IMG/VR virus record: IMGVR_UViG_3300023174_000007
Coordinates: 1-53,344 of that record
Reading direction: 5' to 3' (one strand)
DNA: 53,344 nt
Origin: a virus
Lineage: Duplodnaviria; Caudoviricetes
Under the pieces are notes generated by a model. The model worked only from the letters and a program-made list of their open reading frames with translations. It was not told the DNA's origin and made no database searches. Below are positions 10,308 to 51,359 of this stretch, in pieces. The translations under genes were made by a program, and so were the position numbers. Numbering within the stretch: position 1 is the first letter of the stretch; each line of letters opens with the position of its first letter.

Positions 10308-10624
10308 GCGACCATGTCATTACTAACAGCCTGAATGGCAAGTTTAAATGCGAGTTCTGCGGGACAGAAGAGGAGCCGCCCTTCATGCCTGCGCCAATCA
10401 ACGTAATCATTGATGCTATGGATTACTTCATTGACACGCATAAGAAGTGTAAGAGGCCACAACCAGAGGCCGCTATGTCTGAGTACATCAAAGGGTTTAA
10501 CAGCGGCTATCAGTTCGTATTGCACGAGATAGAGACGTATATCAAACAATACCCAGACAACAAGTTTGCCTTGCAGGAGTTGTTGGAACATCTTAGGATG
10601 GAGGACAAGCCTGATGCAACTTAA
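10304..10624 (+). CDS. Hypothetical zinc-binding protein
   Basis: CEFC...H..C motif. Confidence 0.65.
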   Translation: MSDHVITNSLNGKFKCEFCGTEEEPPFMPAPINVIIDAMDYFIDTHKKCKRPQPEAAMSEYIKGFNSGYQFVLHEIETYIKQYPDNKFALQELLEHLRMEDKPDAT

Positions 10625-12968: not shown

Positions 12969-13574
12969 ATGCCAGAAACCATCAAGAAGCCTGCCAAGGC
13001 ATCCAAACCTACTAAGGCTAGTAAGCCTACAGTCACGCCCAAAAAAGGCATGGATGGCGTGAATATAGATACTGCGCACGCTAAAACACCTAAGCCAACA
13101 GGACGCCCAACAAAGTTCAACCAACAGACAGCAGACCTCATATGCATGATGCTAAGTGAGGGAATGAGCCTAAGACAAATACTAAAGGCTGATAAGGTAG
13201 GGAAGCTACCAGCGCAGAGTACGATTTACGAGTGGTTAATACGCCACCCTCTCTTTGCGGAGCAATACGCACGCGCCCGTGAGGAGCAGGCCGACACCAA
13301 CGCTGACGAAATTCTGGAGATTGCGGATGAGCATCCCCCTGAGTTTACTGATGACAAGGGTCGCACCCTTCTTGACCATACCTACATCGCTTGGCAGAAA
13401 CAACGCATTGAGGCTAGAAAGTGGACAGCTATGAAGCTGAAGCCTAAGAAGTACGGTGACCGCGTAGCGCTCGAAGGCGTAGAAGGCGGAGCCGCCATCA
13501 AGACCGAGGACACTAGCGCTAACAAGTTCCTTGAGGTTATTAAGAACATGGAGATGAACAAGCGTGCTGGCTGA
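12969..13574 (+). CDS. terS: Terminase small subunit (Sf6/P22-like)
   Basis: GRPTKF...ICMMLSEGMSLRQI...STIYEWL...YARARE...ARKWTAMKLKPKKYGD; directly upstream of terL. Confidence 0.88.
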   Translation: MPETIKKPAKASKPTKASKPTVTPKKGMDGVNIDTAHAKTPKPTGRPTKFNQQTADLICMMLSEGMSLRQILKADKVGKLPAQSTIYEWLIRHPLFAEQYARAREEQADTNADEILEIADEHPPEFTDDKGRTLLDHTYIAWQKQRIEARKWTAMKLKPKKYGDRVALEGVEGGAAIKTEDTSANKFLEVIKNMEMNKRAG

Positions 13575-14982
13575 GTTGCTCTCAGACCCAGATGTGCAGG
13601 CGGAGTTCAACGCTCAGGCCGACCATGACCGTATTGCCCAGATTGCTCATGCTACTTGGGTAGCGAGCGCCCACCGCTACCAAATACCGCCGCCCTTGGA
13701 GTATGACTATACTATATGGATGATGCTTGCTGGTCGAGGGGCAGGGAAAACCCGTAGTGCCGCCGAGGCTCTATGGTGGTGGGCATGGACTCACCCTGAA
13801 TCAAGGTGTTTAGTCCTCGCGCCCACATCGAACGATATTAAGTTCACCTGCTTCGAGGGACAGAGTGGATTACTCGCCTGCATCCCTAAAGACTTAGTGG
13901 TGGACTACAACAAGCAAGACCACCAGATTAAGTTATCCAACGGTTCTATCATTCGCGGTATCTCTGGCGACTCCTACGAGCGATTACGAGGCCCACAGTT
14001 CCACTTTGCTTGGTGCGATGAGTTAGCGGCCTTCCAATACCTTGGCTCTGGTGAGGCGTGGGATATGATGATGATGGGCTTACGTTTGGGTGACAAGCCG
14101 CGTGTCATTGTGACAACGACGCCGCGCCCGAAGGACTTGATACTCGACTTAGTAGGGCGCGAAGGTGAGGACGTGGTCATCGACCGCGCTAGTACCTACG
14201 AGAACGAGCAGAACCTAGCCTCATCCTTCAGACAGCAGTTAGAGCAGTACAAGGGTAGCAAGCTGTATCAGCAGGAGGTTATGGGGGAGATTGTTGACCT
14301 CGAAGACGGTAAGGTTGTCAGCCGCGATATGTTCAAACTGTACCCGCATGACAAACCATTCCCTAAGTTCGAGTTCATAGTCCAAAGCTATGACTGCGCC
14401 TTTAGCGATAAAGAGTACAACGACCCTACTGCTATGACAACGTGGGGCGTATTCAAGCCTATGGACGGGCCTATGTCTGTCCTTCTCATCGACTGTTGGG
14501 CTGAACACCTAACCTTCCCCTTACTCAAGCCTAAAGTGCTAGAGGAGTGGAGAGTCTCCTACGGCGAAGGGAAGGAGGCCAAACGCCCTGACCTTATCTT
14601 AGTCGAGGACAAGGCGGCGGGTATCTCCCTGATTCAAGAACTGCGAGCGGCTCACTTGCCCGTGCGAGGCTATAACCCCGGCAAAGCTGACAAGATGCAG
14701 AGGCTACAGATAACGGCATCCATCTTTGCAACTGGGCGTGTTTGGCTACCAGAGTCGAGCCAACGCAAGGGCTACGTCAAGGATTGGTGCGAAGGCTTCC
14801 TAAGCCAGATATGCTCCTTCCCAGACTCAACGCATGACGACTATGTCGATAGCGCAACACAAGCGATTCGCTTAATGAAGGACATGGGTTTCCTAGACAT
14901 AAACCCTGAGCCGAGATATGATGACGATGAAGACGAATATGCTTATACCCGCAAAGAGCGGGTCAACCCTTACGCGGTGTAA
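13564..14982 (+). CDS. terL: Terminase large subunit
   Basis: AGRGAGKT Walker A, LRGPQF..AWCDE Walker B, TTTP coupling motif, SYDCA and HDDYVDS nuclease motifs. Confidence 0.96.
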   Translation: MLAELLSDPDVQAEFNAQADHDRIAQIAHATWVASAHRYQIPPPLEYDYTIWMMLAGRGAGKTRSAAEALWWWAWTHPESRCLVLAPTSNDIKFTCFEGQSGLLACIPKDLVVDYNKQDHQIKLSNGSIIRGISGDSYERLRGPQFHFAWCDELAAFQYLGSGEAWDMMMMGLRLGDKPRVIVTTTPRPKDLILDLVGREGEDVVIDRASTYENEQNLASSFRQQLEQYKGSKLYQQEVMGEIVDLEDGKVVSRDMFKLYPHDKPFPKFEFIVQSYDCAFSDKEYNDPTAMTTWGVFKPMDGPMSVLLIDCWAEHLTFPLLKPKVLEEWRVSYGEGKEAKRPDLILVEDKAAGISLIQELRAAHLPVRGYNPGKADKMQRLQITASIFATGRVWLPESSQRKGYVKDWCEGFLSQICSFPDSTHDDYVDSATQAIRLMKDMGFLDINPEPRYDDDEDEYAYTRKERVNPYAV

Positions 14983-14984
14983 CT

Positions 14985-17900
14985 ATGGCAGACGCAAAGA
15001 AACTTGTAGGTGGTCTAGGTAAGGTAAGCCAACAACTGCTTGCCCCTAGTAAGGAACTAACAGCGGCTGAACGTGCTGAAGCTGGTCGTAAGGCGGCGGC
15101 TTTGATTCAATCCCAACCCCAAGTGAAGGCTTCCGAAGCCCTCGGTCAACTTATGGAAAAGGGTTTTAAGAAGACGACCACCACGCAGGCTGACCGCACT
15201 CGTGTAGGTAAAGGCAACATAGGCGGCGCACCCTTCTCGGCTATTAGTGAGGTCGACCCTAATTACGCTGACAAGGTTTGGGGCGTGTTCGATGAGGGAA
15301 CGGCTAGTCGATTGACTAACCTAACGTCACCTGATACCGCGTGGACAACGATGCTTGGCTCTGCAAACCAACTCAAGACAAACCCTATAGTGTTTGATAA
15401 GTTGAAACGTGGCTTTCTCGACTCCATGAAGCAAGGCAACCTATCTGACGAATTAGCTGGCAAGATTAACCATAACCTAGCGCTTACCTTTGGTGAGGGT
15501 GCTGACATCCGCGACCCTAAGATATGGAAGCAGGCCGATACGTTTGAGAAGCGTGCGGCTTTGGCTGACCTAATGATGGGTCTTGGTATCGCGCCCAGCA
15601 AAGGTGGTGTTGCTTTAGGTGGTGAGAAGAGCGGTAAGGGAGTTATCTTTCGCCCTAGCGACATCCTTAAGCGTGAGACTGAGCCTTACTTGCTTCATAC
15701 CGAACATGGTGGTGATGTGCCTACCTTTGCGGCTGGCCCACGACTGTTTCGCTTGGATAAGGAGACCGAGTTTAGGCCAGACCTACACCCGGGTTTTCCT
15801 ACCCTTATCAAAGGCAAGGACTTAGAGTACAACATGGCTCCAACGCCGACCGAGATATACCTTCCTACTTGGCACGCAGATTTTAAAAAGAACAATCCAG
15901 ATAGAAAAGCGCCGGGTTACTATGACCTTGCACTTGGCGTAAAGGGTGAAGGACTGCCAAGCCAAGAACTGAACGACGAATATATCAAGCATTTATTGCG
16001 CGAGGGATTCAAAGACGGTGGCAGTGTAGACATTGACGCCGCTGATGCACGCCTAGCCGCCGCAATTGAGAAGCGTATGGCTAAGGGTGGCTCAGTAGAC
16101 ATCGAGGCGGCAGACGCTCGATTAGAGGCCGCTATTAATGCTCGCATGGGAATGGCTGAAGGCGGAGCAACTGGCTTCAAGAAGATTGAGTTCATGGCGG
16201 ATGGCGGTAAGTTAGTCAAAGGGCTGGGCAAGATTGGCAAGAAGTTGTTGGCTGATGATGTATTGCCACAAGTAGAGCGTGAGGCTAATCTAAATAAGAT
16301 GTTGTCCGAAAGCAAGGTTAAAGATAAGTTGTTTCACGGCACAACAAAAGACGTTAAGAAGTTTGACCAAAGTCAAGCAGGAAAGAAGACGGGCAATCTG
16401 ACCACTGCGTTAGGTACTTTTTTAAGCGATAACCCCAAAGAGGCAAGTAGATACGCAACAGACTGGGGCGCGGAAGGCGGAAATGTAATGCCTGTCTTTG
16501 CGCAAATTAAAAACCCATATGAAATGCCTTACAGAGAGTTTGATAATTTAGCAATGGGTGCTTGGAATAGAAGAATGAAAGACCCAGACTATGACCCTAA
16601 GTCAGTAGTTAAAGTAGGCGATATGGATGCACAAAGACGTGCCGCTGAAGCCGTAAATAAACATGAGGCTGACGCATTACAAGATGTAATGAATAGGCGT
16701 GAGGAACTCATGTCACAAGGTTACGACTCCGTCATGGTAAAAATTGGCGGCAACAATGAAATAATAGTTTTTGACCCAACCAAGATAAAGTCTGCTACAG
16801 GTAATCGTGGCACTTACGACATGACTGACCCAGACATCAACAAAGCAGAAGGCGGCGGAGCCTTCAAGCGATTAGAGTTCACTGAAGAGGATAGCCCAGT
16901 ACAGGTAGGACTGCACGCCAACAAGCAAGGCGATATGTCTAACTCTGGCGTTATTGCCAATCTTGACATGAAGGGCGCTGGTCGTCTAGGTGTTGGAACT
17001 AACATTAGTTCGCGGGGTAACGAGATGAACCCAGCAACAATGCTGAATTATTCCAACAACGTCGGTGACCTTGGCCTTAATGCTAACGTAATGAAACCGT
17101 CAAATGCTCGTGACGATATGCTGATGACTAACGTCATGGCATCGTATCCCGTTGGTGAAGGGCGCGTGACCGCAGGAATGCACGGCTCTCGTAGGGATGG
17201 AACGCATCAAGTCAACGCTCACTCGTTAGGCTATAACGCCCCTGTTGGTGGCGGTAACCTTAACCTGAACGTAACAAAGCCAAGACAAGGCTCTGCTATG
17301 GTTGGCGCTCAGTACCAAAGACCGTTTGCAGAAGGCGGACAGGCTGAGTTCAAGAAACTAGAGTTCATGGCTGATGGTGGCAAACTAGTTAAGGGTGCAA
17401 CCAACGTAATGAAGAAGCTGTTGGCTCCCCAAGATGACGCGCTCAAGCTGGCTCAAGAACGCGCCGCTCTACCAGTATCTCAGGGCGGCCTAGGATTGCC
17501 TACCAATAACACGCCAGAGCAACGAGCCAAGGCTATGGGCTTTGATAGGGATACTTATCACGGTTCTTTTAAAGACATCAAGAAACTTGACCCAAGCATT
17601 GGTTCAACTGAATCCCATGCAGGTAAAGGTATTTACTCAACCGACTCAGCAGAAGATGCAAGTCGCAACTATGCCAGCATCTATGGTGCAGACCCGCAAG
17701 CCAGAATCGAGCGTGGCTTTGATGCGGCAAATAAATCTATGCGCAAGACGCATAGTCGAATGAGGGACGAAGTGTTAAGCCCATTGCAACAAGAAGTTAT
17801 TTTAAGAAATACTATCGACGCAGACAATCTTGGCGTTGTATACCCGTTAAAAGTTCGTTCGGACAAGTCAATTCATTTGGATAAGCCAGAAGCCGATGAA

Positions 17901-19670
17901 CTTATGGTTGGCCCATTTCAGCGTTATGACGAAGCGTCTGATTACTTTGAAGATACGCCGCATACGCCAAAGTTTAAAGAAGCATTGGAAGAATTCCACC
18001 GCCGAGGTGGAGATGCAAACCCAATCTATGAACTTGTGCAAGATTACGATACGTCATTGCCTGCAAGTGAGTTGTTCAGAGTAATAAAAAAAGTAGGTGA
18101 TGAAGGTGGCTTGTACGATAATTTCCAAGGCGAACCACTTTCTGGAGGTGTAGCGGCTGGTGACTTTATGAAACACTTTGGCGTTGATGAAATTAGGCAT
18201 ACGCCTCAGTTTATGAATCAAGAGTTAAATATTGGAAACGAACATACCATAAGCCTTGACCCAGACAATGTGCGTTCACGCTTTGCGGCATTTGACCCAT
18301 TTCGTAAGTCAGCGGCAATTGCGGCATCTATGGGTGTTGCGGCTCCTGACTTGTTAGCAAAAGAAAAAGAAAAAAAGAAGTCTGACGGCGGTAAGATTGT
18401 TGGTGGCCTTGGCAAGATAGCTAAGAAGTTATTGGAAGAGCCAAGAATCCAAACAATTGAAGCGCCTTCTATCATTATTCCTAGCAAACTCAGCAATGTA
18501 AAAGAGATGGCTCGAAAACGTGAAGGTGAGTATGGCGCAAGGCGAGTAGAACGCGCGTCTGACGAGATACCTAATTTAGAAAAGATGTATCAAGAGGATG
18601 CGCTTAGGCGTGCCTTTATTGGTGGTGACAATGCTAGAGCGTTAATGACTATGAATCCTGCGGACTTTGAAAATTATGCCGCACCTCTAGATTTAAAAAC
18701 AAGTATTGGCCCTAAGATGGCAGAGTATGCCAAGCAAGGTGACATTACAAAAGATACTGTACCAACTGATGAGTTTATAAAATATCTTCGTAGCTTGCAA
18801 GATGGGTTTGAAGATATACCAATGCTTACAATAAACAAAGAAGAGTCTGGCTTGCCATTAGTACCTTTTATTACTGGACACGAAGGGCGTCATCGTAGTC
18901 GAGCCTTGGCCGAGTCAGGTCAACCTACAAGTTTAATTCAATTATATCCACGCGCTGAGTTAAGAGAGCCTTTCCCACGTCGTTCTCAAGAAGAGTATAT
19001 TGACGCAATTAGAAAAGAGATGGAAATGACAGGCAATATGGTGCGACCAGAAGTATATTTGCACAATATATTGGAAAAAAATGTAAAACGCGACCCAATT
19101 AAATTGCCAGACCTATACGCAGATGGTGGCGCGGCATTTAAGACGCTCCAATTTAAAGATGCCCAACACTTTGACGGTGGCGGTATTGCCTTCCCTGAGA
19201 TGACTCCTATGACGGAAGGCTCACGTCGTGAGCCACTGCTGACAGAAAAAGATTGGGAGAACATCAAGCGCAACGCTCCAGAGGTCTATGAGTGGGCAAA
19301 GCAAAACGTCAAGGACGAAGCCAGTCAACTTAAATCTGCACGAGGGGTAAAAGACTTTGCTCTTCGCACTGGCGCTCAATACCTTGGTGGTATTCCTGAC
19401 TTATTGAACTTAGGATTGATGGGGGTTGACGCCCTTGCTGATACCAATCTGTCGTCCGAAAAGCCTTGGTTTGGTAGTGAGCAATACATTGATGCCATGC
19501 GTAAGGTAGGTATGGTTGGGGAGAATGAGTTCCCTATAGCCGAGACTGTTGCTGGAGTTCTTATGCCAGCAGGATTAATTAAGAAGGGTATCAAGAAGAT
19601 TAGTGGAGCAAAGCCTGCTAAACAAGAACCCAAAAAACGACAAGGCGGATTGTCCGCAATGGCAAGATAA
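14985..19670 (+). CDS. Large polyvalent multidomain protein (two ART-like, one beta-barrel-like, one ParB-like domain) separated by repeated xxxGG linkers
   Basis: LFHGT/YHGS..G(T/I)(F/Y)..D...AS.YA ART-like cores; GHEGRHR ParB-like motif; about 11 (M/F/Y/K)xxGG motifs. Confidence 0.7.
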   Translation: MADAKKLVGGLGKVSQQLLAPSKELTAAERAEAGRKAAALIQSQPQVKASEALGQLMEKGFKKTTTTQADRTRVGKGNIGGAPFSAISEVDPNYADKVWGVFDEGTASRLTNLTSPDTAWTTMLGSANQLKTNPIVFDKLKRGFLDSMKQGNLSDELAGKINHNLALTFGEGADIRDPKIWKQADTFEKRAALADLMMGLGIAPSKGGVALGGEKSGKGVIFRPSDILKRETEPYLLHTEHGGDVPTFAAGPRLFRLDKETEFRPDLHPGFPTLIKGKDLEYNMAPTPTEIYLPTWHADFKKNNPDRKAPGYYDLALGVKGEGLPSQELNDEYIKHLLREGFKDGGSVDIDAADARLAAAIEKRMAKGGSVDIEAADARLEAAINARMGMAEGGATGFKKIEFMADGGKLVKGLGKIGKKLLADDVLPQVEREANLNKMLSESKVKDKLFHGTTKDVKKFDQSQAGKKTGNLTTALGTFLSDNPKEASRYATDWGAEGGNVMPVFAQIKNPYEMPYREFDNLAMGAWNRRMKDPDYDPKSVVKVGDMDAQRRAAEAVNKHEADALQDVMNRREELMSQGYDSVMVKIGGNNEIIVFDPTKIKSATGNRGTYDMTDPDINKAEGGGAFKRLEFTEEDSPVQVGLHANKQGDMSNSGVIANLDMKGAGRLGVGTNISSRGNEMNPATMLNYSNNVGDLGLNANVMKPSNARDDMLMTNVMASYPVGEGRVTAGMHGSRRDGTHQVNAHSLGYNAPVGGGNLNLNVTKPRQGSAMVGAQYQRPFAEGGQAEFKKLEFMADGGKLVKGATNVMKKLLAPQDDALKLAQERAALPVSQGGLGLPTNNTPEQRAKAMGFDRDTYHGSFKDIKKLDPSIGSTESHAGKGIYSTDSAEDASRNYASIYGADPQARIERGFDAANKSMRKTHSRMRDEVLSPLQQEVILRNTIDADNLGVVYPLKVRSDKSIHLDKPEADELMVGPFQRYDEASDYFEDTPHTPKFKEALEEFHRRGGDANPIYELVQDYDTSLPASELFRVIKKVGDEGGLYDNFQGEPLSGGVAAGDFMKHFGVDEIRHTPQFMNQELNIGNEHTISLDPDNVRSRFAAFDPFRKSAAIAASMGVAAPDLLAKEKEKKKSDGGKIVGGLGKIAKKLLEEPRIQTIEAPSIIIPSKLSNVKEMARKREGEYGARRVERASDEIPNLEKMYQEDALRRAFIGGDNARALMTMNPADFENYAAPLDLKTSIGPKMAEYAKQGDITKDTVPTDEFIKYLRSLQDGFEDIPMLTINKEESGLPLVPFITGHEGRHRSRALAESGQPTSLIQLYPRAELREPFPRRSQEEYIDAIRKEMEMTGNMVRPEVYLHNILEKNVKRDPIKLPDLYADGGAAFKTLQFKDAQHFDGGGIAFPEMTPMTEGSRREPLLTEKDWENIKRNAPEVYEWAKQNVKDEASQLKSARGVKDFALRTGAQYLGGIPDLLNLGLMGVDALADTNLSSEKPWFGSEQYIDAMRKVGMVGENEFPIAETVAGVLMPAGLIKKGIKKISGAKPAKQEPKKRQGGLSAMAR

Positions 19671-19680
19671 GGATTAACAC

Positions 19681-22194
19681 ATGGCAACAGATTACCCGAT
19701 TAGCCCTGACGAAGACCGCTTCATTGAGGGTATACGCATGACTGACGAGGGGGGTGCAGAGGTGGATATGCTCCCCGGCGAAGAACCTGAAGTTGAAGAG
19801 TTGCCTGACGGTTCCGCAGTAGTCAAGTTACAAGACTTCAAAGGCCCAACCGAAGACGAAGATTTCTACGTTAATTTAGCTGAAGAAGTTGTCAGCATTA
19901 ATGACTTAGAAAACTTAGCTACGCGTTATATTGACCTTATTGACAACGACCGCCAAGCACGCAAGAAGCGTGATAAGCAATATGAAGAGGGTTTGCGTAG
20001 GACAGGTATGGGCGATGATGCGCCGGGCGGCGCTCAGTTCCTCGGAGCCTCCAAAGTAGTACACCCAATGATGGCAGAGGCTTGTGTAGACTTTGCTTCG
20101 CGTGCTATTAAGGAGATGTTTCCACCAGATGGCCCAGCCAAGACCAAAATTCTAGGCGATGTAACGGATGAAAAGACAGAGGTTGCCGAGCGTAAGCGTG
20201 ATTACATGAATTGGCAGTTGACCGAACAGATTGAAGAGTTTAGGGACGAGCAGGAGCAAATGCTGACCCAATTGCCCTTGGGTGGTTCACAGTTTATGAA
20301 GCTGTGGTACGACGATAAGAAGCGTAGACCTTGCGCCGAATTCGTTGCCATTGACAACATCCTGCTCCCCTTTGCATCTGCTAATTTTTACACCTCACAG
20401 CGTGTAACAGAACAACAGGACATCAGCGAGTGGGAATTTAAACAACGTATTGACCGTGGTCTATACCGCGACATCAACTTTATTCGCACTACGTCCGAAC
20501 CAGAGCAGACTGCGTCTGAGAAAGCCAACGCCAAGATTGAGGGCAAGCAGTTTGAGGATGGCGAAGACGGCTTGCGTCGCGTGTATCACATATACACATG
20601 GCTTGACTTAGAAGACGACGAGCGTACTAACGGTGATAACGCACCTTATATCCTAATGATTGACGACCTAGACCGTAAAGTCTTAGGTTTGTATCGTAAT
20701 TGGGAAGAAGGCGACGACACCCTAACCAAGTTGGATTGGATGGTTGAGTTTAAATTCATCCCTTGGCGAGGCGCATATGCTATTGGGCTACCTCATCTCA
20801 TCGGTGGTCTTTCTGCCGCCGCTACGGGGTCATTAAGAGCCTTGTTGGACACTGCGCACGTCAACAACTCCCTAACCATGTTGAAGTTGAAGGGTGCAAA
20901 GGTCTCAGGACAATCCGACCAAATTGAAATCACGCAGGTAACTGAGATTGAAGGCGGAATAGGCGTAGACGACATCCGCAAGATTGCCATGCCTATGCCA
21001 TTTAACCCACCTTCGCCAGTATTGTTTGACTTACTAGGGTTCCTAACGACTCAAGCCAAGGGCGTAGTAACTACTGCTGAAGAAAAGATTGCTAACGCTA
21101 ACTCCAATATGCCTGTAGGCACGACTCAGGCGTTAATTGAGCAAGGCGCGGTGGTATTTTCTGCTATTCACTCACGTTTGCATGATAGTCAACGTCGTGT
21201 ATTGCATATTCTTGGACGTATTAATCGTTGGCACTTAGATGAGCAACGTAAAGGCGATATTGTTGCCGAGTTGCCTATTAAGCGTGAAGATTTTCGTCGT
21301 AACAGCGACGTGGTTCCAGTCTCTGACCCACATATCTTCTCTGAGACACAGCGTGTTGCCCAAATGCAATCTGTCATGCAACTTTCTGCACAGTTTCCTG
21401 CCATCTTTGACCAACGTGCGGTTGTGAGTCGAATGCTCAAACAACTTAAAATACCAAACGTCAACGAGTTAATGCCTAATACGGGTAAACCCGCAGAGTT
21501 AAATGCGGCAGATGAGAATAGCGCAATGGCGTTAGGCAAGCCAGCATTTGCTTACCCACGTCAAGACCATTTGGCACATATCCAAACCCATTTGACGTTT
21601 GCTCTTGACCCTACACTAGGCTCAAACAGACTTATTGCGCCGAAGTTCATCCCGCAGGTTATGGAACATATCAAGCAACACATGATGCTTTGGTATACCC
21701 AACAGGTACAGGGCTACGTCTTGGCGGCTGGTGATGTCAAACTAGGCAAGTACGAGGACAGCAAGATTGCTAAAGAAATTGACCGCGCTATTGCGGTAGC
21801 GTCTGACCACGTTAGTTTGGACTCTGCGCAAGTATTCCAAGGCGTGTTGCCTGCGTTAGAGCAATTGGGTCAACTCATGCAACAGTTCAAACCACCACCA
21901 CCGCCATTGGAAGGCGAGGCTCAGGCGGTATTGCAAGCGTCTATGGCAGAGACACAACGTCGTACCGCCGCAGACCAAGCTAAGTTGGCGCTCGATACGC
22001 AGAAGTTCCAAGCCGAAATGGCAAAAGACCAATCAGAGCAAGAGTCCAAGATTGCTATGAATGCCGAAAACAATTTAACCACTGAACGTATTAAGACCGC
22101 AGAATTGACCGTAGATGAGGTCAAGCTACGGCAGGAGCAGGAGAAAACTGCAATTGCTTTAAATAGACAAACCCAACGTAACTTAGGAGAATGA
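19681..22194 (+). CDS. Portal protein (P22-like, long C-terminal coiled coil)
   Basis: 837 aa near terL; HPMMAEACVDF..RA..E.FP..GP motif; Q/A-rich helical tail. Confidence 0.88.
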   Translation: MATDYPISPDEDRFIEGIRMTDEGGAEVDMLPGEEPEVEELPDGSAVVKLQDFKGPTEDEDFYVNLAEEVVSINDLENLATRYIDLIDNDRQARKKRDKQYEEGLRRTGMGDDAPGGAQFLGASKVVHPMMAEACVDFASRAIKEMFPPDGPAKTKILGDVTDEKTEVAERKRDYMNWQLTEQIEEFRDEQEQMLTQLPLGGSQFMKLWYDDKKRRPCAEFVAIDNILLPFASANFYTSQRVTEQQDISEWEFKQRIDRGLYRDINFIRTTSEPEQTASEKANAKIEGKQFEDGEDGLRRVYHIYTWLDLEDDERTNGDNAPYILMIDDLDRKVLGLYRNWEEGDDTLTKLDWMVEFKFIPWRGAYAIGLPHLIGGLSAAATGSLRALLDTAHVNNSLTMLKLKGAKVSGQSDQIEITQVTEIEGGIGVDDIRKIAMPMPFNPPSPVLFDLLGFLTTQAKGVVTTAEEKIANANSNMPVGTTQALIEQGAVVFSAIHSRLHDSQRRVLHILGRINRWHLDEQRKGDIVAELPIKREDFRRNSDVVPVSDPHIFSETQRVAQMQSVMQLSAQFPAIFDQRAVVSRMLKQLKIPNVNELMPNTGKPAELNAADENSAMALGKPAFAYPRQDHLAHIQTHLTFALDPTLGSNRLIAPKFIPQVMEHIKQHMMLWYTQQVQGYVLAAGDVKLGKYEDSKIAKEIDRAIAVASDHVSLDSAQVFQGVLPALEQLGQLMQQFKPPPPPLEGEAQAVLQASMAETQRRTAADQAKLALDTQKFQAEMAKDQSEQESKIAMNAENNLTTERIKTAELTVDEVKLRQEQEKTAIALNRQTQRNLGE

Positions 22195-22375: not shown

Positions 22376-22557
22376 AGTTACTTTCCGACTTTATTAGCGC
22401 TGTAGAAGCGCGTCAGGCTGAGATTGCAAAAGGGTTAGCGCATGGAAATGCGTCTGACTACTATGCATACCAACGTCTAGTCGGAGAAAACTTAGGACTT
22501 GAGGCATCCCTTGAGATTCTTAACCACCTTTTGAAAGAAGATGAAGATGACAGATAG
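22372..22557 (+). CDS. Small head-module protein
   Basis: LAHG.A.DY..YQRLVG...GL motif, typical between portal and GroES genes. Confidence 0.7.
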   Translation: MKLLSDFISAVEARQAEIAKGLAHGNASDYYAYQRLVGENLGLEASLEILNHLLKEDEDDR

Positions 22558-22969
22558 CACGGTAGCGGGTAATGCCGCTGATTTAGAGGAAGCCTTTCCT
22601 CTTGTAGACCCCGGTGCGATTCCCCTTGGTGCAAGAGTATTAGTACAGTTGCGCAAAGCCAAGAAACGAATGACCGAATCGGGGATTATCCTGCCTGAAG
22701 AGACTCGCGACACTGAACGGGCGCAAAATCCCGTTGCCAAAGTGGTAGCGATGGGGCCATTAGCGTTTAAAAAACGCGACACAATGGAACCTTGGGTTGA
22801 GGGCATATGGTGCAAAGAAGGTGACTACCTTCGCGTACCTAAATGGACTGGCGACCGATGGGTAGTAGCGCATGGAGACGACGAAAACGTCGAATTTATG
22901 GTGCTAAATGACCACGAAGTGATTGCCAGAATTACTGGAAATCCACTTGAAGTGAGGGCATTCGTATGA
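22541..22969 (+). CDS. groES: GroES/Cpn10-like co-chaperonin
   Basis: PLGARVLV, TESGIILP mobile loop, VVAMGP, GD.L, LNDHEVIA. Confidence 0.85.
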   Translation: MKMTDSTVAGNAADLEEAFPLVDPGAIPLGARVLVQLRKAKKRMTESGIILPEETRDTERAQNPVAKVVAMGPLAFKKRDTMEPWVEGIWCKEGDYLRVPKWTGDRWVVAHGDDENVEFMVLNDHEVIARITGNPLEVRAFV

Positions 22970-27075: not shown

Positions 27076-28296
27076 ATGGGACAATTTAAACCAATGGTCA
27101 AGATGATGACCACTGAGCCTACAGTTGAGTTAAAACTCAAAAAAGGCGGTCACGTCAATATGAAAAAAGGCGGTATGGCTGAAGGTGGTCATAAGAAGAT
27201 GGCTATGGGTGGTGGTGCTTTGGACATGATGTCAGGAACTCCTGCTTTGGTGGGTCGTCCTGCTGTTAATGCTCCTGTTCGCGCCCCCGGCAAACCTTCA
27301 ATGGCTTCACGTCGTAAGGCAATGATGGCTAAACCTGCAATGAAATCTGCAATGCCTGCCGCAATGCCTCCAATGAAAAAAGGTGGCAAAGCAGAAGGTG
27401 GCGAGTCCAAAAAGACGCATATGACTGAGATGTCAAAGATGAAGGGTCTTGAAAAAGAACTAAAGTCTCACGAGTCCAAGCCTGCAAGCAAAGGACATAA
27501 AGGTCTAAAAACTGGTGGTGTTGCTCTTGGTAACGCTGGTGGCTACAAAAAAGGTGGCATGGCTACAGGTGGCGTAAAACTAGGCAATGCTGGTGGCTTC
27601 AAAGACGGTGGTATGTCTATGGTTGAAAAGGGCGGGAAGATGGTTCCTGACTTTGCGGCTGATGGCAAAGGCAAGATGAAAATGGGCGGAATGGCTACTG
27701 GTGGTGTCAAGTTGGGTAATGCTGGAGGCTTTAAAATGGGGGGTAAATCTTCAAAAAAAGCCTACGCGGCGGGGGGAACTGTTAATTCAGGCAAACCCGT
27801 CGCGATGCCACAAGGCGCTAAAAAGCCTTCGCAACCTGTAAGCATCAATCAATTGTCTGGTACTTTCAAAAGGGGTGGAAAAGTTACCCTTGCTGAAGGT
27901 AACTTGATGAAAGCATTCGGTAGAGAAAATGCTTCAGCCATGAAGTCGGCTAAAGCAAAATCTAACGAGGTCTACAGCAAGTATGGCAATATGAAGATGG
28001 CTGGTGGTGGTTCAACTTCTGACAAAGAGATGGATGTATCAAACGGCGCGTATGACGCTCACTATGCTCGTGAAAAGGCAGAGAATGAGGCAGACCGCAA
28101 GATGATGACTGATGCTCTGATGTTCTTGCCACGCCAAGCTAAGAAGGTTTATGCAAGCCTAACTGGTCAAGGCGCTGTAAGTGATAAAGAGAAATCAATG
28201 TCTCCTTCTATGAGAGGTCAAGGTTCTGTTACAGAAACTGAAAAATCTATAACAGTATCCCCAGCAGGTAAAAAACGCGGTGGACGTGCTTGTTAA
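27076..28296 (+). CDS. Basic low-complexity protein with about 18 xxxGG repeats
   Basis: AAGGAG RBS, ATG 27076; MKKGG, MAEGG, YKKGG, FKDGG, MATGG and others. Confidence 0.8.
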   Translation: MGQFKPMVKMMTTEPTVELKLKKGGHVNMKKGGMAEGGHKKMAMGGGALDMMSGTPALVGRPAVNAPVRAPGKPSMASRRKAMMAKPAMKSAMPAAMPPMKKGGKAEGGESKKTHMTEMSKMKGLEKELKSHESKPASKGHKGLKTGGVALGNAGGYKKGGMATGGVKLGNAGGFKDGGMSMVEKGGKMVPDFAADGKGKMKMGGMATGGVKLGNAGGFKMGGKSSKKAYAAGGTVNSGKPVAMPQGAKKPSQPVSINQLSGTFKRGGKVTLAEGNLMKAFGRENASAMKSAKAKSNEVYSKYGNMKMAGGGSTSDKEMDVSNGAYDAHYAREKAENEADRKMMTDALMFLPRQAKKVYASLTGQGAVSDKEKSMSPSMRGQGSVTETEKSITVSPAGKKRGGRAC

Positions 28297-28762: not shown

Positions 28763-29071
28763 ATGCCAAGCAAATCACCAGCCCAACACAAATTGATGGC
28801 GGCGGTTGCGCACAATCCTGACTTTGCAAAAAAAGTTGGCATTCCCACCAAGGTAGGAAAAGAGTTTGTACAGGCAGATAAAAAGAAAATGGCTGATGGT
28901 GGTAACGTCAACGAAGCTGGTAACTACACTAAACCTGAACTTAGAAAGCGTATTGTTTCTCAAGTAAAGTCTCAAGCTGTGCAAGGTACTGGAGCAGGTC
29001 AGTGGTCTGCTCGAAAGGCTCAGTTGGTTGCCAAGAAGTACAAAGATGCAGGTGGTGGTTATCGTGATTAA
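28763..29071 (+). CDS. Small basic protein (two modules joined by MADGG)
   Basis: MPSKSPAQHKLMAAVAHNP module + MADGG + NYTKP.LR...GQWSARKAQL module. Confidence 0.75.
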   Translation: MPSKSPAQHKLMAAVAHNPDFAKKVGIPTKVGKEFVQADKKKMADGGNVNEAGNYTKPELRKRIVSQVKSQAVQGTGAGQWSARKAQLVAKKYKDAGGGYRD

Positions 29072-35699: not shown

Positions 35700-35709
35700 G
35701 AGAATTAAA

Positions 35710-46028: not shown

Positions 46029-46031
46029 GAC

Positions 46032-48602
46032 ATGGCTATTTTACAAAAACGCAAATCAAGTAGACAGCTTCCTGAAGCAAGGGGAATTCAACGCTCACCA
46101 CTAGATAGCGTTATTCGTGGCGGTGATAACGCTCCATCTATTTCTGGTGGTCGTCCCTCATCAATCACTTCAGGCGGTGGCTTTGAAACTTCTAATCCTT
46201 TGACTTCCTCTACTAAGCGTCCTTTTACTTCAACGGTAACTAATCCTACACCATCATTGACATCAAAGACTTCTTCGGTTCCTAAAACTTCTTTGACTCC
46301 ACGAACAACTTTAACTACTAAACCTGCAACGACTAAGCCAACAATTACAACTAAAACTCCTACTACCCCTGCGACTAAAACAACGCCAGTTAATGTTAAT
46401 ACAAGGCCAACAATTTCAAAGTCTACTGGAACTAATAATTCCATAACTAGTAAAGTGCTAAATGCAGGTACAGGCGCAATTATTGGTGCTGGTACAAAAT
46501 TATTATTTGACAAGGTTTCTGGTAAACCTGTTGTTACACCTCCTTCTGGCGGCACAAAAACTCCTGCTGGCGGAACAACAAAACCTGCGGGTGGTGGAAG
46601 CACGCCAAATATTAGTAGACCCAAGACGCCTACTAGCACAATAAACCCAGTAACTAAGTTGCCAACAGGTACTGGGTTTGGAGATGACAAAGAAGAATTT
46701 ACAACAGACTCATTAGGTAATACTTATAAGACTATGCCTGATGGTACGTCTGTGCTTTATCGCGCCGCAGAGGTTGATGAAGATGTTGAAGCAACTACGC
46801 CAACTGGTGGAGGAACTCGCAGTATTGGTGGAACTGACACAACTGTTGCAAATACAGATATGCAGTATTACCAAGACGATGCAGGCAACATCTACACAAT
46901 GAACGAAGATGGTAGCTATGCTTTGTTTGCTGACGTAAATCAATCTGAAAATGACGCTAATACCGCTTTTGCTGACAATACTTATATTGACCCTGATACC
47001 AATCAAGTTTGGACTTTAGCTGAGAATGGTGAATGGTCAACAGTTGGTGAGTCCCTACCGAATGATGATAACGATATAAGTTCAAGAATCGGGCCTAAAT
47101 TTGATACTAATTATTTAGCGGATAACAATGAATTTCCTAATGAAAATGATTATTTATTAGCAGACACTAATGGCTTCACCTACGATAATGGAGACGACTA
47201 TGAAGTCAAGCGCGGAGGACTAATTACTATGATGAAAAACGGTGGGCTTCCACATTTTGAAGAAGGCGGCGTAACGCAATATCACGACGACGGCTCTTAC
47301 ACTATTACATACGATGACGGCTCAACAGTAACTTATGATTCTGATGGCGACCAATATAGCACTTCGGTTCCAGATGAAGACCCAGTAACAGGAGTATTTA
47401 CGCCTAAGAAAGTAACAATAGCGCCGGGATATAGTACAGGTAAATACGACCCTAAAAATAAAATTTATTCAAGCAGTAAACTAGGTTCAGAGTGGCCTGC
47501 TGGTTTTATGGCTAATGGTGATGGTACTGCCACAATGGTTAACGATGACGGCTCTACAATGACCGTTGACGCTGAAATGAACCCTGTATACACAACTAAC
47601 GCAACTGATAGAACTGAAACAAGCAGGTCTTTTACTGATGAACTTGGTAATTTAATTAATAAAGGCACAGGTCTTGGTAAGAGTGCTTTGGATAGTATTA
47701 CTGGTGCATTGGGTACTACCGCAGGCGCGGCTGGTGCTGGTGCTTTGATTGCATCATTGCTTGGTAGTGACTTTAGTGGTGGTTCTGGTTCACAAAACCA
47801 AGGCGTTGATATGTCTAAGGTTGGTGTTATTAACCCACGCACAACAGACTTTGGGATTGGCCCAACTAAATTTGTTGGTTATGAAGACTACGGTACAGGC
47901 GGTGGGGACTACACGCCTAATGCGGAATTGTTGACTAACCTAAATGCGCCGGGCTACAACCCTGTTAACGAAGGTGACTACGGCTACGAAGAAGTTCCTG
48001 AAGAAAGAACTCCTCAAATGGCTTCAGGTGGTTTGTCTTCAATGTCAAGCCCAGTTGCGTCTTACTACACGTTTGGTCAACCTGCGGACATTTTGGCAAA
48101 CTTAGGTATGCGCCCACAGCCGCCAATGAATCCGCCTGAAATGATGACTCAAGTTGGTCAACAACTACCACCTCAGCAAGCGCAACAGCAAAGATTGCCA
48201 CAACAAGCGCCTCCTATGGCTCCACAACAGATGTCGCCTCAAATGCCACAGCAAGGCATAATGCCACAACAGCAAGGTATGCCTCCCCCAATGCGTAAGG
48301 GTGGATTGCTTCACATTTCTAATGTGCCAATGGTAGAAGGTCGTATGGATTTCCGTAACGGCTCTGCTGTACATGGAGAAGGCGATGGACAGTCAGACGA
48401 CATTCCTGCTATGTTAGCTGATGGTGAATATGTAATTGACTCTGAGACTGTGGCACAAATTGGCAACGGTTCAACTAAGGCTGGCGCACAGGCTTTGGAT
48501 AAATTTCGCGAGAGTATCCGCGCCCACAAGCGTTCTGCCCCCGTAAATAAAATCCCACCAAAAACAAAGGTGTTGACCTCATACCTTAAAGGAGTAAAAT
48601 AA
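46032..48602 (+). CDS. Putative ejection/internal virion protein with a C-terminal GxGDGxSDxIPAML domain
   Basis: T/P/K-rich, D-rich hairpin repeats, Q/P-rich segment, xxxGG motifs, GEGDGQSDDIPAMLADGEYVI. Confidence 0.6.
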   Translation: MAILQKRKSSRQLPEARGIQRSPLDSVIRGGDNAPSISGGRPSSITSGGGFETSNPLTSSTKRPFTSTVTNPTPSLTSKTSSVPKTSLTPRTTLTTKPATTKPTITTKTPTTPATKTTPVNVNTRPTISKSTGTNNSITSKVLNAGTGAIIGAGTKLLFDKVSGKPVVTPPSGGTKTPAGGTTKPAGGGSTPNISRPKTPTSTINPVTKLPTGTGFGDDKEEFTTDSLGNTYKTMPDGTSVLYRAAEVDEDVEATTPTGGGTRSIGGTDTTVANTDMQYYQDDAGNIYTMNEDGSYALFADVNQSENDANTAFADNTYIDPDTNQVWTLAENGEWSTVGESLPNDDNDISSRIGPKFDTNYLADNNEFPNENDYLLADTNGFTYDNGDDYEVKRGGLITMMKNGGLPHFEEGGVTQYHDDGSYTITYDDGSTVTYDSDGDQYSTSVPDEDPVTGVFTPKKVTIAPGYSTGKYDPKNKIYSSSKLGSEWPAGFMANGDGTATMVNDDGSTMTVDAEMNPVYTTNATDRTETSRSFTDELGNLINKGTGLGKSALDSITGALGTTAGAAGAGALIASLLGSDFSGGSGSQNQGVDMSKVGVINPRTTDFGIGPTKFVGYEDYGTGGGDYTPNAELLTNLNAPGYNPVNEGDYGYEEVPEERTPQMASGGLSSMSSPVASYYTFGQPADILANLGMRPQPPMNPPEMMTQVGQQLPPQQAQQQRLPQQAPPMAPQQMSPQMPQQGIMPQQQGMPPPMRKGGLLHISNVPMVEGRMDFRNGSAVHGEGDGQSDDIPAMLADGEYVIDSETVAQIGNGSTKAGAQALDKFRESIRAHKRSAPVNKIPPKTKVLTSYLKGVK

Positions 48603-49597
48603 TGGCTGGCTTATTTCAGGGTGACCCACTACCCGCGATTACCAAGACAACGGAAGCCCAACAGACGGCTCCAGAATTTTATACAAATTATTTACAAGAC
48701 ATAGCAAACCTTGGACAGAACGCTGTTCAACAAGGCGGTGTAGCTGGCTTTAGCCCACTACAACAGCAAGCCTTCCAAATGGCTCCAGACGTTGCTTTTG
48801 CTGGTGCTGGGTCTATGGGTGCATCTTCTCAATTACTCGGTCAGGCGGGTGCTACAACCGTTCCTGATGTCATTGCTGACTACATGAATCCCTACACCTC
48901 AAGCGTGGTGGATGAGATGGGTCGTTTGACTAATCGAAATGTGCAGGAAAACATTCTCCCTAATCTTGGTGCGGCGGCTATTGGCTCTGGTCAATTTGGC
49001 TCACGTCGTCAACAACAAGTTACTGGTAACGCTTTGCGTGACATCCAAGCCGACTTATCTGGTAAGCAAATGCAAGCGCTTCAGCAAGGTTATACACAGG
49101 CTGGCACGCAGGCTCAAACCGATTTATCTCGCGCATTATCTGCTGGTCAGGCCTTTGAGAATCTAGGTCAAGCACAGCAGGGGATGGGCGTAGCAGGTCT
49201 AAAGACTATGTCGGACTATGGCGCTCAACAGCAGGCTCAAGGCCAACGACTACTTGATTACCCAATGGCTCAGACTCAGCAATTTGCCAAGTTAATGCAG
49301 GGCTATCAAATGCCTATGGGGACAACTACACAAACAACTGGCTCAGAGGGTTACTCCAATAGTCCCTTGTCTCAGATTGCTGGCTTGGGTTCTTTAGTTG
49401 CTTCTTTGTTTCCAAACACAAGTGTTGCGGACGCACAAAAAGCTTATTACGACAGAGGCGGCAAGCCTGTTGCAGAGGGCGGTTCTATTAAAAAGACTGG
49501 TTTTCGTATGGCTGATGGCGGAATGGCTCCAACAGGTGCAGAATTCCATGATGGTAGCGGAAACTTTTACGATGCCGATGGCTACTTAGTGAGGTAA
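48602..49597 (+). CDS. DNA ejection/pilot-like protein
   Basis: Q/G/A-rich; VAGFSPLQQQA, YMNPY...V, GQFGSRR, SPLSQIAGLG. Confidence 0.65.
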   Translation: MAGLFQGDPLPAITKTTEAQQTAPEFYTNYLQDIANLGQNAVQQGGVAGFSPLQQQAFQMAPDVAFAGAGSMGASSQLLGQAGATTVPDVIADYMNPYTSSVVDEMGRLTNRNVQENILPNLGAAAIGSGQFGSRRQQQVTGNALRDIQADLSGKQMQALQQGYTQAGTQAQTDLSRALSAGQAFENLGQAQQGMGVAGLKTMSDYGAQQQAQGQRLLDYPMAQTQQFAKLMQGYQMPMGTTTQTTGSEGYSNSPLSQIAGLGSLVASLFPNTSVADAQKAYYDRGGKPVAEGGSIKKTGFRMADGGMAPTGAEFHDGSGNFYDADGYLVR

Positions 49598-49600
49598 TAA

Positions 49601-51358: not shown

Positions 51359-51359
51359 T

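Follow-up and report, generated by a model that had tools for sequence, protein, structure and literature searches.

What is encoded between the large terminase and portal genes of this phage, and what is the role of the short motifs that recur along the product? The window, a stretch of 53,344 nucleotides, is a complete 53-kb phage record with direct terminal repeats. A preliminary description of its sequence had read the protein as an array of effector modules delivered by the virion, each with its own tag, released by cleavage at xxxGG motifs or by internal translation starts. Here we compare this proposal with the domains of the protein, its relatives and the other late proteins of the phage. 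All features given below lie on the plus strand.

Position of the gene

The gene P0001 (14985..19670) is an uninterrupted ORF with a product of 1561 aa. It directly follows terL (13564..14982; Terminase_6N and 6C matches), its start being coupled to the terL stop at 14982, and it ends 10 bases before the 837-aa portal ORF (19681..22194; portal PHROG match, E 1.9e-22). The placement between terL and portal, as first described, is thereby borne out. Among 22 related loci, terL is found upstream in 20 and portal downstream in 15; in the remainder the contig end is reached or further cargo ORFs follow. Caulobacter phage RW has terL, portal, a GroES-like gene, the capsid gene (77% identity) and tail genes in common with the present phage and carries no gene in its terL–portal slot. 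Given this empty slot, the gene is accessory as judged by genome comparison. In a related lineage (L018) the slot is split into three ORFs of 497, 520 and 938 aa, a comparison by which modules can exist as separate proteins.

Seams, spacers and leaders

Eleven xxxGG motifs are found along the protein: FKDGG (16008), MAKGG (16077), MAEGG (16152), MADGG (16194), KAEGG (16842), FAEGG (17325), MADGG (17367), KSDGG (18378), YADGG (19116), HFDGG (19167) and KRQGG (19635). All 11 lie where they had been reported, with KRQGG at exactly 19635 instead of near 19638. The four FK(K/R/T)(I/L)(E/Q)F spacers (aa 398, 627, 789 and 1385) and the four cationic amphipathic leaders (aa 6, 409, 800 and 1137) of that description are likewise present. 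The word at the seams consists of a hydrophobic residue, A or K, and x-G-G, and is often doubled around the six-residue spacer FKK(L/I)(E/Q)F. A second xxxGG directly follows only three of the four spacers, FKRLEF (aa 627) being succeeded by neither xxxGG nor a leader. The leader is a cationic amphipathic stretch of 17 residues that opens most units of the chain.

Comparison with shuffled sequences confirmed that this array lies far above chance. Gly-Gly dipeptides number 29 where 15.2 are expected from composition. The pattern [MFYK][AKS][DEK]GG occurs nine times (mean 0.13 and maximum 3 in 2000 shuffles), the spacer pattern four times (shuffle mean 0.004, maximum 1), and there are 37 pairs of 14-mers with at least nine identities as against none in each of 30 shuffles. 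A leader HMM, whose training set partly consists of these same four leaders, gives four matches of 17.3–25.1 bits in the six-frame translation of the whole window, all in the polyvalent ORF, and the next match scores 3.7 bits. Assuming a helix, the leaders have hydrophobic moments of 0.52–0.75, values reached by at most 1.3% of shuffles, and their net charge is +2 to +5.

The protein opens with a leader (aa 5–21; 14997..15047) that keeps the register of the internal leaders, lacks Gly-Gly and has a pLDDT below 50. It is followed by a conserved terminal domain (aa 25–341; 15057..16007) and by a seam array (aa 342–407; 16008..16205), composed of FKDGG, a repeated peptide of about 20 aa, MAEGG, the spacer FKKIEF and MADGG; one copy of the duplicated peptide stands behind each of two xxxGG motifs. 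The predicted structure shows no order in the leader and the seam (pLDDT below 50 at residues 1–11, 15–17 and 343–348), which lie beside a well-folded domain with a pLDDT of 90.

Domains and cargo modules

Behind leader 1 (aa 408–424; 16206..16256), which is supported by the leader HMM and its hydrophobic moment, lies an ART-PolyVal ADP-ribosyltransferase domain (PF18760, aa 448–610; 16326..16814), with 98.8 bits against a gathering cut-off of 31.2 (E 6.1e-28). This domain places the 1561-aa protein among the polyvalent proteins as defined by Iyer, Burroughs, Anand, de Souza and Aravind (2017; PMC5512222). A seam without leader (aa 620–632; 16842..16880; KAEGGG and FKRLEF) separates it from a Gly/Asn-rich module (aa 633–780; 16881..17324), which has no match in Pfam and recurs as a unit in two relatives (L007 and L021, 76% identity). 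At this boundary the proposal that each module has its own tag fails, while most modules do carry a leader. Seam 2 (aa 781–798; 17325..17378; FAEGG, FKKLEF, MADGG) and leader 2 (aa 799–815; 17379..17429; leader HMM) introduce a second, diverged ART-like module (aa ~830–1125; 17472..18359). It aligns to the first ART with a pairwise E of 8e-6 over 55 aa; alone, it stays below the PF18760 cut-off, and its only Pfam match is a weak one to DUF3990, also below cut-off. Seam 3 together with leader 3 (aa 1132–1152; 18378..18440) has KSDGG, no Met and no spacer.

The next module (aa 1153–1377; 18441..19115) shows an invariant G-H-E-G-R-H-R stretch. An assignment to ParB_N (PF02195), suggested by this stretch, was rejected, as none of seven aligned members matches at E up to 0.01. 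Where relatives do match ParB_N, it is in a different module of about 160 aa. Another module, with an HDFYGH stretch, occurs in 13 of the retrieved relatives; it matches nothing in the window and no sequence in the PDB. Seam 4 (aa 1378–1399; 19116..19181; YADGG, FKTLQF, HFDGGG) lacks a leader and leads into the conserved C-terminal domain (aa 1400–1561; 19182..19667), which has a conserved tail that ends with KKRxGG plus six residues. The two windows of highest hydrophobicity in the protein fall in this domain, and neither reaches transmembrane grade.

The conserved N-domain recurs in 449 representative proteins, in which it sits N-terminally, C-terminally or internally. Its predicted fold is confident (pLDDT 90.4) and is without a clear solved relative. 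Foldseek against the PDB returned nothing at E up to 0.001; a PUA-like fold (ASCH, EVE or YTH) was considered, but the best structural match, PH1033 (Z 6.1, 128 aligned residues, rmsd 3.7), and the YTH domains (Z 4 to 5.6) are all below the level that the tool regards as meaningful. No MuF (SPP1 gp7-like), portal-fusion or other known head-anchor domain was detected in the protein with Pfam at E up to 1.

Two marks of the polyvalent class are found. At least two disparate domains are present, namely one firm ART-PolyVal domain, the diverged ART-like module and four unrelated modules with no family assigned, and the protein is phage-encoded near head and packaging genes, as its terL–portal position here and in related loci indicates. 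The cargo domains of relatives include ART-PolyVal, ParB_N, GDSL lipase, PcfJ and LPD23. The description of the modules as effector cargo agrees with these families and with the ART-PolyVal module; within the present protein it is supported for that one module.

Exchange of modules among relatives

Leaders were found in 77 of 121 close relatives, 240 in total. Internal ends of BLAST similarity blocks lie within 25 aa of a leader for 30% of starts and 44% of ends, compared with 10% of random positions, and the peaks at leaders become sharper when only blocks of at least 70% identity are considered. The 306 leader-bounded segments fall into 103 strict clusters, and 65 different module orders are seen among 75 leader-bearing proteins. 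The N-domain cluster, with 51 members, has 25 distinct right-hand neighbours, and a module with 14 members is flanked by 11 neighbours on either side. In related phages the slot, the seams and at least one of the two terminal domains are retained, while the units between them are swapped, added or dropped. The comparison of homologues that the preliminary description had called for thus upholds a modular array with motif-bounded swaps, and these alignments make it very probable that modules are exchanged at the seams. In more distant representatives only 4 of 124 carry a leader by the HMM. Some of these 124 have variant joints, in which an amphipathic helix again comes after Gly-Gly, with other sequences. 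By this sampling, the modelled leader is a feature of a sub-clade.

Conservation at the peptide level

Junctions 1 and 2 have the same residue at 23 of 35 codons, and only 12 of those 23 codons are identical. When the leaders of the gene are compared in pairs, 9 to 14 codons give the same residue, and 1 to 8 of these are identical. Since the leaders differ at most synonymous sites, it is the peptide and not the DNA that is conserved. At the codon level this shows that seam and leader have been kept by selection on the peptide rather than by recent copying of DNA. Apart from Gly-Gly, the internal leaders copy the N-terminus of the protein itself, and the junction MADGGKLV mirrors the true start MADAKKLV in register. 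Gly-Gly occupies positions −2 and −1 in 109 of 157 internal leaders and residues 4–5 in only one of 102 true MA[DE] N-termini. Lys is at +1 in 95% of 152 internal leaders, a position at which the search pattern itself demanded K or R.

Seam motif in other late proteins

The seam motif occurs 32 times in the phage, in 5 of 70 ORFs, while 200 within-ORF shuffles give 8.9 ± 3.1 copies with a maximum of 21. A Lys/Met/Gly-rich late protein (27076..28296) contains 15 copies and ends with KKRGG plus three residues. Its motifs recur at intervals of 5 to 8 residues, an unusual spacing for cut sites that counts against cleavage. Homologues are present in three of five related records, including both of the near-complete ones, in phages that also have the polyvalent gene, and the motifs are conserved in them. 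One MADGG is found in a 102-aa late ORF (28763..29071). Two presumed ejection proteins of 856 and 331 aa (46032..49597), assigned by a match to the DNA ejection protein family phrog_4287 (E 1.5e-4), have three and two seam motifs, respectively, and the 331-aa protein ends with VAEGG...MADGG. Phage RW lacks the Lys/Met/Gly-rich protein, and only two seam motifs were found in ten of its late proteins. As the head genes are common to both phages and seam motifs are nearly absent from RW, a seam-specific protease among the core head proteins is unlikely.

No peptidase domain was found in the 1561-aa protein (Pfam, E up to 1), no peptidase family in the Pfam lists of 120 listed relatives, and no protease among the roughly 45 ORFs of the window that were compared with Pfam or PHROGs. 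Between the portal and capsid genes no ORF matches a protease family; ORFs of 179 and 190 aa there have no assigned function.

Proposed mechanism and alternatives

The protein is a polyvalent chain of effector modules, most likely carried in the head of this podovirus-like phage and delivered with the DNA. The conserved terminal domains may hold the chain in the head or steer its exit. As further late proteins of the phage carry the motif too, the seams would be recognised by something acting in trans. They would most likely be processing sites, so that each unit is freed with a leader at its new N-terminus, mirroring the chain's own N-terminus in having the leader without Gly-Gly; the freed leader helix could serve as a tag for exit, membrane or DNA contact. 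Taken as a whole, we regard a head-carried effector chain with exchangeable units and possibly processed seams as the fairly probable reading. Head packaging and delivery, suggested by the gene position and by published inference for the protein class, is by itself also rather likely. That the seams are cut we propose tentatively, at somewhat below an even chance.

It is possible, if rather unlikely, that the seams are uncut hinges in a chain that is packed and delivered whole, Gly-Gly flexibility allowing the domains to unfold and thread singly through portal and tail, while the cationic amphipathic helices bind to DNA inside the head or, once outside, to the host membrane. The negative protease search, the charge and amphipathicity of the leaders and the predicted disorder of seams and leaders beside a folded domain agree with such hinges, and PMC5512222 notes transfer without processing for the virion RNA polymerase of N4 and for some polyvalent proteins of plasmids. 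A hinge is needed only inside the chain, so true N-termini without Gly-Gly are explained as well. A plain hinge would also look like Gly-Gly followed by a helix, which counts against cleavage. However, hinges have no need for a conserved hydrophobic-A/K-x-G-G word, a conserved +1 Lys or an FKKLEF spacer, and they leave unexplained the same word in other late proteins and the short tails behind the final Gly-Gly.

It is improbable that the protein stays out of the virion and acts late as a cytoplasmic multi-enzyme in the already infected cell, its terminal domains serving another role. Packaging is deduced from gene position and class, the protein has no recognisable head anchor in Pfam, and the N-domain lacks a solved relative, all of which would fit. 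Against this, the terL–portal slot is constant, the start is coupled to the terL stop, the seam motif is common to the presumed ejection proteins, and the domains are typical of a class delivered with DNA on the inference published in PMC5512222.

Separate translation of modules from the Met of MADGG, the other release route first suggested, is weakened to the point of being very unlikely. An ATG precedes two of the three internal leaders, the copied register of the true start would suit initiation, and 75 of 157 internal leaders have Met at −5; yet the other 82 lack it, and junction 3 has none. At both MADGG ATGs the sole Shine–Dalgarno-like match is a 3-nt GAG, too close at 3 bases upstream. 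Of the 55 Met codons in frame within the gene, 28 do at least as well, whereas a match of 4 nt or longer precedes 21 of 36 real starts. Equally hard to credit is a role of the seams as DNA only, as footholds for homologous recombination in cassette exchange: modules do exchange there, but the leaders differ at most synonymous sites with the peptide conserved, and variant seams keep the layout in other sequences.

Comparison with known systems

The overall concept is not new, being the polyvalent protein idea developed for phages and conjugative elements in the main text of PMC5512222. As described there, polyvalent proteins combine many unrelated enzymatic domains per phage polypeptide with extensive mosaicism and a head-gene context, and DNA-coupled delivery with possible processing was proposed; class-marker domains are ART-PolyVal here and PcfJ, LPD23 and ParB_N in relatives. 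The processing proposed there relies on zincin-like peptidases that are domains of the same polypeptide, whereas none was found in the 1561-aa protein; this frequent but non-obligatory domain is absent here by Pfam and from the Pfam lists of the 120 listed relatives. The MuF- and portal-fused phage effectors treated in PMC5512222 likewise tie effector domains to a portal-adjacent head protein, but the present protein has no MuF or portal domain in Pfam and its N-domain has a different fold. The words "linker" and "amphipathic" do not occur in the main text of PMC5512222, so the grammar of seam, spacer and leader, and its use on other virion proteins, seems to be undescribed there. New here are the module exchange at seams, the peptide-level conservation of leaders, the seam motif in other late proteins, the split slot in a related lineage and a folded N-domain without clear solved relative.

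In eukaryotic viruses, Gly-Gly-directed polyprotein processing is carried out by the adenovirus protease, ASFV pS273R and coronavirus PLpro. There the Gly-Gly words punctuate structural or core precursors; the likeness to the present seams, at which cleavage is putative, is an analogy only, and proteases of clans CE and CA were not found in the present phage. In phage T4, Alt and the internal proteins carry a capsid targeting sequence that is cut by the prohead protease gp21. As in our proposal, these proteins, an ADP-ribosyltransferase among them, enter the head by means of a short tag at the N-terminus, are trimmed at a stereotyped site and pass into the host with the DNA. In T4 each protein has its own gene and a single tag, the cut site is L/I-x-E and the protease is known, whereas in the present phage the protease was not found, the motif ends with Gly-Gly and the units are chained. 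In the MARTX toxins of Vibrio, conserved ends flank a variable array of effector modules, which are reshuffled from strain to strain and set free by cleavage of the linkers between them. These toxins are secreted by bacteria and contain a cysteine protease domain of their own, which cuts after Leu. No such domain was found here and the delivery route differs, but conserved ends with shuffled modules between them are common to both.

Locus and protein class

The gene studied here is a plus-strand ORF (14985..19670) encoding a protein of 1561 aa. It belongs to a complete virus record of 53,344 bp with direct terminal repeats, starts two bases past the stop codon of the large terminase gene terL (13564-14982, Terminase_6N and 6C) and ends 10 bases upstream of the portal gene (19681-22194, portal PHROG, E 1.9e-22). 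Downstream lie a GroES-like (Cpn10) gene (22541-22969) between the portal and scaffold-like genes, a gene for a 321-aa charged protein of scaffold-like appearance and two small ORFs in the portal-to-capsid region. These are followed by the capsid gene (25095-26009), the genes for an SU10-type adaptor, tail fibre and lysis, and a block of presumed ejection proteins (44310-53072). A PDB sequence search with the 321-aa protein gave chance-level matches only.

A Pfam search identifies ART-PolyVal (PF18760) at residues 448-610 of the 1561-aa protein (E 6.1e-28). A second module (residues ~830-1125) carries the opening motifs of this first ART module (pairwise E 8e-6) and by itself reaches no Pfam cut-off. 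The Gly/Asn-rich module at residues 633-780 belongs to no Pfam family, and no family was found for the module at residues 1153-1377, which contains an invariant GHEGRHR stretch, or for the conserved N- and C-terminal domains. A ParB identity of the GHEGRHR module was rejected: a search with seven aligned members gave no ParB_N match at E up to 0.01, and relatives that do match ParB_N do so through another module. In PDB searches by sequence, the whole protein has no match, and the module at residues 1132-1382 and the C-terminal domain have chance-level matches only. The Gly/Asn-rich module (16881-17324) looks strand-like and ends in QYQRPF immediately upstream of an FAEGG word.

A word-index search for relatives gave 356 matches at E up to 0.001. 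Among the 120 matches listed, the relatives are 860 to 2393 aa long and carry ART-PolyVal, ParB_N, GDSL lipase, PcfJ, LPD23 and DUF7178 domains. By its domain set and architecture, the 1561-aa protein is a polyvalent protein, a known class that Iyer et al. 2017 (PMC5512222) predicted from sequence. There, polyvalent proteins are inferred to enter the host along with the DNA.

Seams and leaders

The polyvalent protein is made of exchangeable units, with a conserved seam and leader at their joints. A seam consists of xxxGG words, often doubled around a six-residue spacer, and a leader is a stretch of 17 residues. The 11 xxxGG motifs, four FK(K/R/T)(I/L)(E/Q)F spacers and four leaders of the preliminary description were all found where it had placed them, with one leader at the true N-terminus and three internal ones at residues 409, 800 and 1137. 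The seam pattern has nine occurrences, where 2000 shuffles average 0.13, and the spacer pattern four, where they average 0.004. Pairs of 14-mers with at least nine identities number 37, compared with none in 30 shuffles. On a six-frame translation of the window, a leader HMM finds exactly four leader sites (17 to 25 bits) and the next best match scores 3.7 bits. Seams, spacers and leaders are therefore not due to chance. The leaders are cationic, and amphipathic if helical. No transmembrane-grade segment is present in the 1561-aa protein (best 19-residue Kyte-Doolittle mean 1.23).

Seam and leader are conserved as a peptide and are under peptide-level selection. The junctions before the first and second internal leaders have the same residue at 23 of 35 codons, with an identical codon at only 12 of those, and in the other leader pairs 9 to 14 codons agree in residue, of which 1 to 8 are identical. 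The internal junction MADGGKLVKG is in register with the true N-terminus MADAKKLVGG. Gly-Gly is found at positions -2 and -1 of 109 of 157 internal leaders, whereas only one of 102 fetched proteins starting with MA[DE] has it at residues 4-5, and it is thus specific to internal joints. A cut site and a hinge would both explain this restriction. The stretch upstream of 152 internal leaders reads M (46%), A (64%), D (62%), G (68%), G (98%), and an FKKLEF spacer stands ahead of about a third of them. In more distant relatives the seam sequences differ and the layout is kept: a pair of Gly-Gly words precedes an amphipathic stretch rich in Lys.

Module exchange among relatives

The analyses of modules, i.e. 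the segments between seams, cover 121 family proteins out of the 356 matches. At least one leader was detected in 77 of the 121, with 240 leaders in total. The preliminary description had proposed that module boundaries coincide with the motifs, and this is borne out: 30% of internal BLAST-block starts and 44% of ends fall within 25 aa of a leader, against 10% at random, counts that represent non-independent events because the proteins are related. Among blocks of at least 70% identity, which are likewise not independent of each other, starts are most frequent at -5 to -1 from the leader, and ends at +15 to +24.

Cutting at the leaders gave 306 segments, which fall into 103 clusters under strict thresholds; these were used since looser single-linkage clustering lumped most modules together. 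Among the 75 proteins that have an internal leader, 65 different architectures occur. The cluster of the N-terminal domain has 25 different right-hand neighbours, and a module with 14 members, located at position 1, 2 or 5, has 11 neighbours on the left and 11 on the right. Close relatives of the 1561-aa protein are about 90% identical to it or more over residues 1-400 and 1127-1561, with the middle replaced.

In the related locus L018, the slot between terL and portal (L018:4421-10298) is split into three ORFs of 497, 520 and 938 aa with overlapping stop and start codons. The 520-aa ORF contains the N-terminal domain, the 938-aa ORF contains ART and other domains, and all three retain xxxGG words as well as a short tail that is conserved. 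Modules can stand alone, as they do here. The 497-aa ORF gave chance-level matches only in a PDB sequence search. Stand-alone modules initiated at a leader were sought among shorter proteins and set aside, as the search gave mostly contig-edge fragments.

Terminal domains

The conserved N-terminal domain (residues 25-341) is not tied to one position. Its profile matches 449 representative proteins at E up to 0.001 and 351 at E up to 1e-30, and in these proteins of 213 to 2500 aa the domain is located at the N-end, the C-end or internally. In one lineage of related loci (L009-L012) it is C-terminal and adjoins the portal gene, and some proteins with the same seams and C-terminal domain have a different N-module. 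With an alignment of 41 sequences including diverse representatives, the domain is modelled at a pLDDT of 90.4 and a pTM of 0.83, while an alignment of 16 sequences gave a pLDDT of only 42. The leader and the first seam remain below 50 in the model.

Foldseek found no solved relative of this model. An independent structure aligner places it nearest to PUA-like folds (PH1033, YTH, ASCH, EVE) with a helical insert, at a best Z of 6.1 that is possibly meaningless. The profile has chance-level matches only among PDB sequences, and the ESM Atlas offers no informative neighbour (best 0.80). A viral model library contains 16 matches, all uncharacterised proteins of uncultured phages, some of which are fused to PcfJ-like or lysozyme-like domains.

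The C-terminal domain (residues 1400-1561) shows 57 to 72% identity across seven loci by tblastn and ends in a conserved KKRxGG followed by six residues. Several relatives have recurrent short C-terminal tails after the last Gly-Gly, e.g. ERLL/ERPL and DAM..EL...KK.

The seam motif in other late proteins

The motif hydrophobic-[AKS]-x-G-G is found 32 times in the window, in 5 of 70 ORFs, compared with 8.9 +/- 3.1 copies (maximum 21) in within-ORF shuffles. Ten copies are in the polyvalent protein, 15 in a Lys/Met/Gly-rich late protein (27076-28296), three and two in two presumed ejection proteins, and two, which may be chance, in a Gly-rich fibre protein. A 102-aa late ORF, which had been dropped by ORF selection, has one MADGG. 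The Lys/Met/Gly-rich protein has a conserved N-terminus and a KKRGG tail, and its motifs are conserved anchors amid otherwise variable sequence. Homologues are present in three of five related records that bear a polyvalent gene, including both near-complete ones, and each terminates in K(K/R)(R/Q)GG plus three to four residues.

The nearest cultured relatives of the virus are Caulobacter phages RW, KcrB, RLK and GB2A, with a portal 49.6% identical. Phage RW shares the head and tail core (capsid protein 77% identical); its terL and portal genes have no gene between them, the Lys/Met/Gly-rich protein is absent, and 10 late proteins contain two motif copies. In this small genome sample, the comparison points to a putative seam reader that would act in trans and belong to the accessory set or to the host. 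A tblastn search of the phage GenBank collection with the whole 1561-aa protein returned two weak ART matches only, so the collection holds no cultured relative of the polyvalent gene.

Processing at the seams

Packaging, delivery and processing of the polyvalent protein are steps that we infer. Processing at the seams is tentatively favoured, at somewhat less than even confidence, because the word is stereotyped at the residues beside the proposed cut, is internal only, is common to other virion proteins and often precedes short terminal tails. Alternatively, the seams may be hinges between domains, a slightly less likely reading which is kept alive by the missing protease and by the tight spacing of the motifs in the Lys/Met/Gly-rich protein. 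No peptidase domain was detected in the 1561-aa protein, in the Pfam lists of the 120 listed relatives or among the roughly 45 ORFs scanned. Thirteen fetched relatives contain a module with an HDFYGH stretch, which L018 encodes as an ORF of its own and of which the window has no copy. Release by internal starts at MADGG, which the preliminary description had also suggested, has no support. Junction 3 lacks a Met, and the only Shine-Dalgarno-like match of both MADGG ATGs is a GAG of 3 nt at too short a distance, as at 28 of 55 in-frame Met codons, in comparison with a match of at least 4 nt at 21 of 36 real starts.

In a wider and rather unlikely form of the processing view, hydrophobic-A/K-x-Gly-Gly would serve the whole phage as a processing code, and a phage or host activity yet to be recognised would read it. 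A cut after Gly-Gly would then free each module, its new N-terminus being in every case the same cationic amphipathic helix, and this helix could serve as a self-contained tag for tail exit or for docking to the host membrane. The Lys/Met/Gly-rich core protein and the ejection proteins would be trimmed by the same code. Any domain placed between two seams could thus be loaded, freed and delivered, a plug-and-play format for head-delivered effectors.

We found no paper on such seams and no experimental work on the loading, cutting or delivery of polyvalent proteins. Neither 'linker' nor 'amphipathic' is used in the main text of PMC5512222, whose supplements may list the family studied here. Our analysis adds to the known class a leader that repeats the true N-terminus, the occurrence of the motif in further virion proteins, a confident model of the N-terminal domain and a relative with the chain split into genes. 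With a short stereotyped seam and leader at which modules have been exchanged many times, the family offers a clear handle on how polyvalent proteins are loaded, cut and delivered, and the last three of these additions are further handles. Should the seams turn out to be signals for processing or loading, they would account for the assembly and renewal of the injected anti-defence arsenals of phages and would provide a simple format for packing proteins of choice into phage heads. Should they be hinges only, the family is still a well-documented example of its class.

Other genes of the record

At 42478-43865, just before the ejection-protein block, a ketosynthase-like gene (Ketoacyl-synt_C, E 5e-15) lies directly downstream of a 93-aa ORF, which has a very weak phosphopantetheine-attachment match (E 0.09). 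A link between the ketosynthase gene and the seams was dropped, as the gene is missing in all five related records, two of them near complete. A 179-aa ORF has no informative neighbour in the ESM Atlas, with unnamed viral clusters only.

Within the ejection block, two presumed ejection proteins of 572 and 856 aa contain recurrent GGL(S/T)x(M/V/I) words (46032-48602) similar to the C-terminal tail of the polyvalent protein. The 856-aa protein has a counterpart in phage RW over its last ~80 aa only, and in both phages an M-x-x-G-G word precedes this region. A 570-aa protein (51360-53072) with an N-terminal glucosaminidase domain is probably an ejected wall-degrading protein; its C-terminus appeared leader-like by eye, and the leader HMM has no match there, which leaves a resemblance only. 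The GroES-like gene is common to phage RW (49% identity). An HNH endonuclease with an AP2-like domain (35686-36219) is encoded between the tail fibre and lysis genes, and at 10566-11657 ABC-type ATPase motifs are fused to a GNAT acetyltransferase-like C-terminus.
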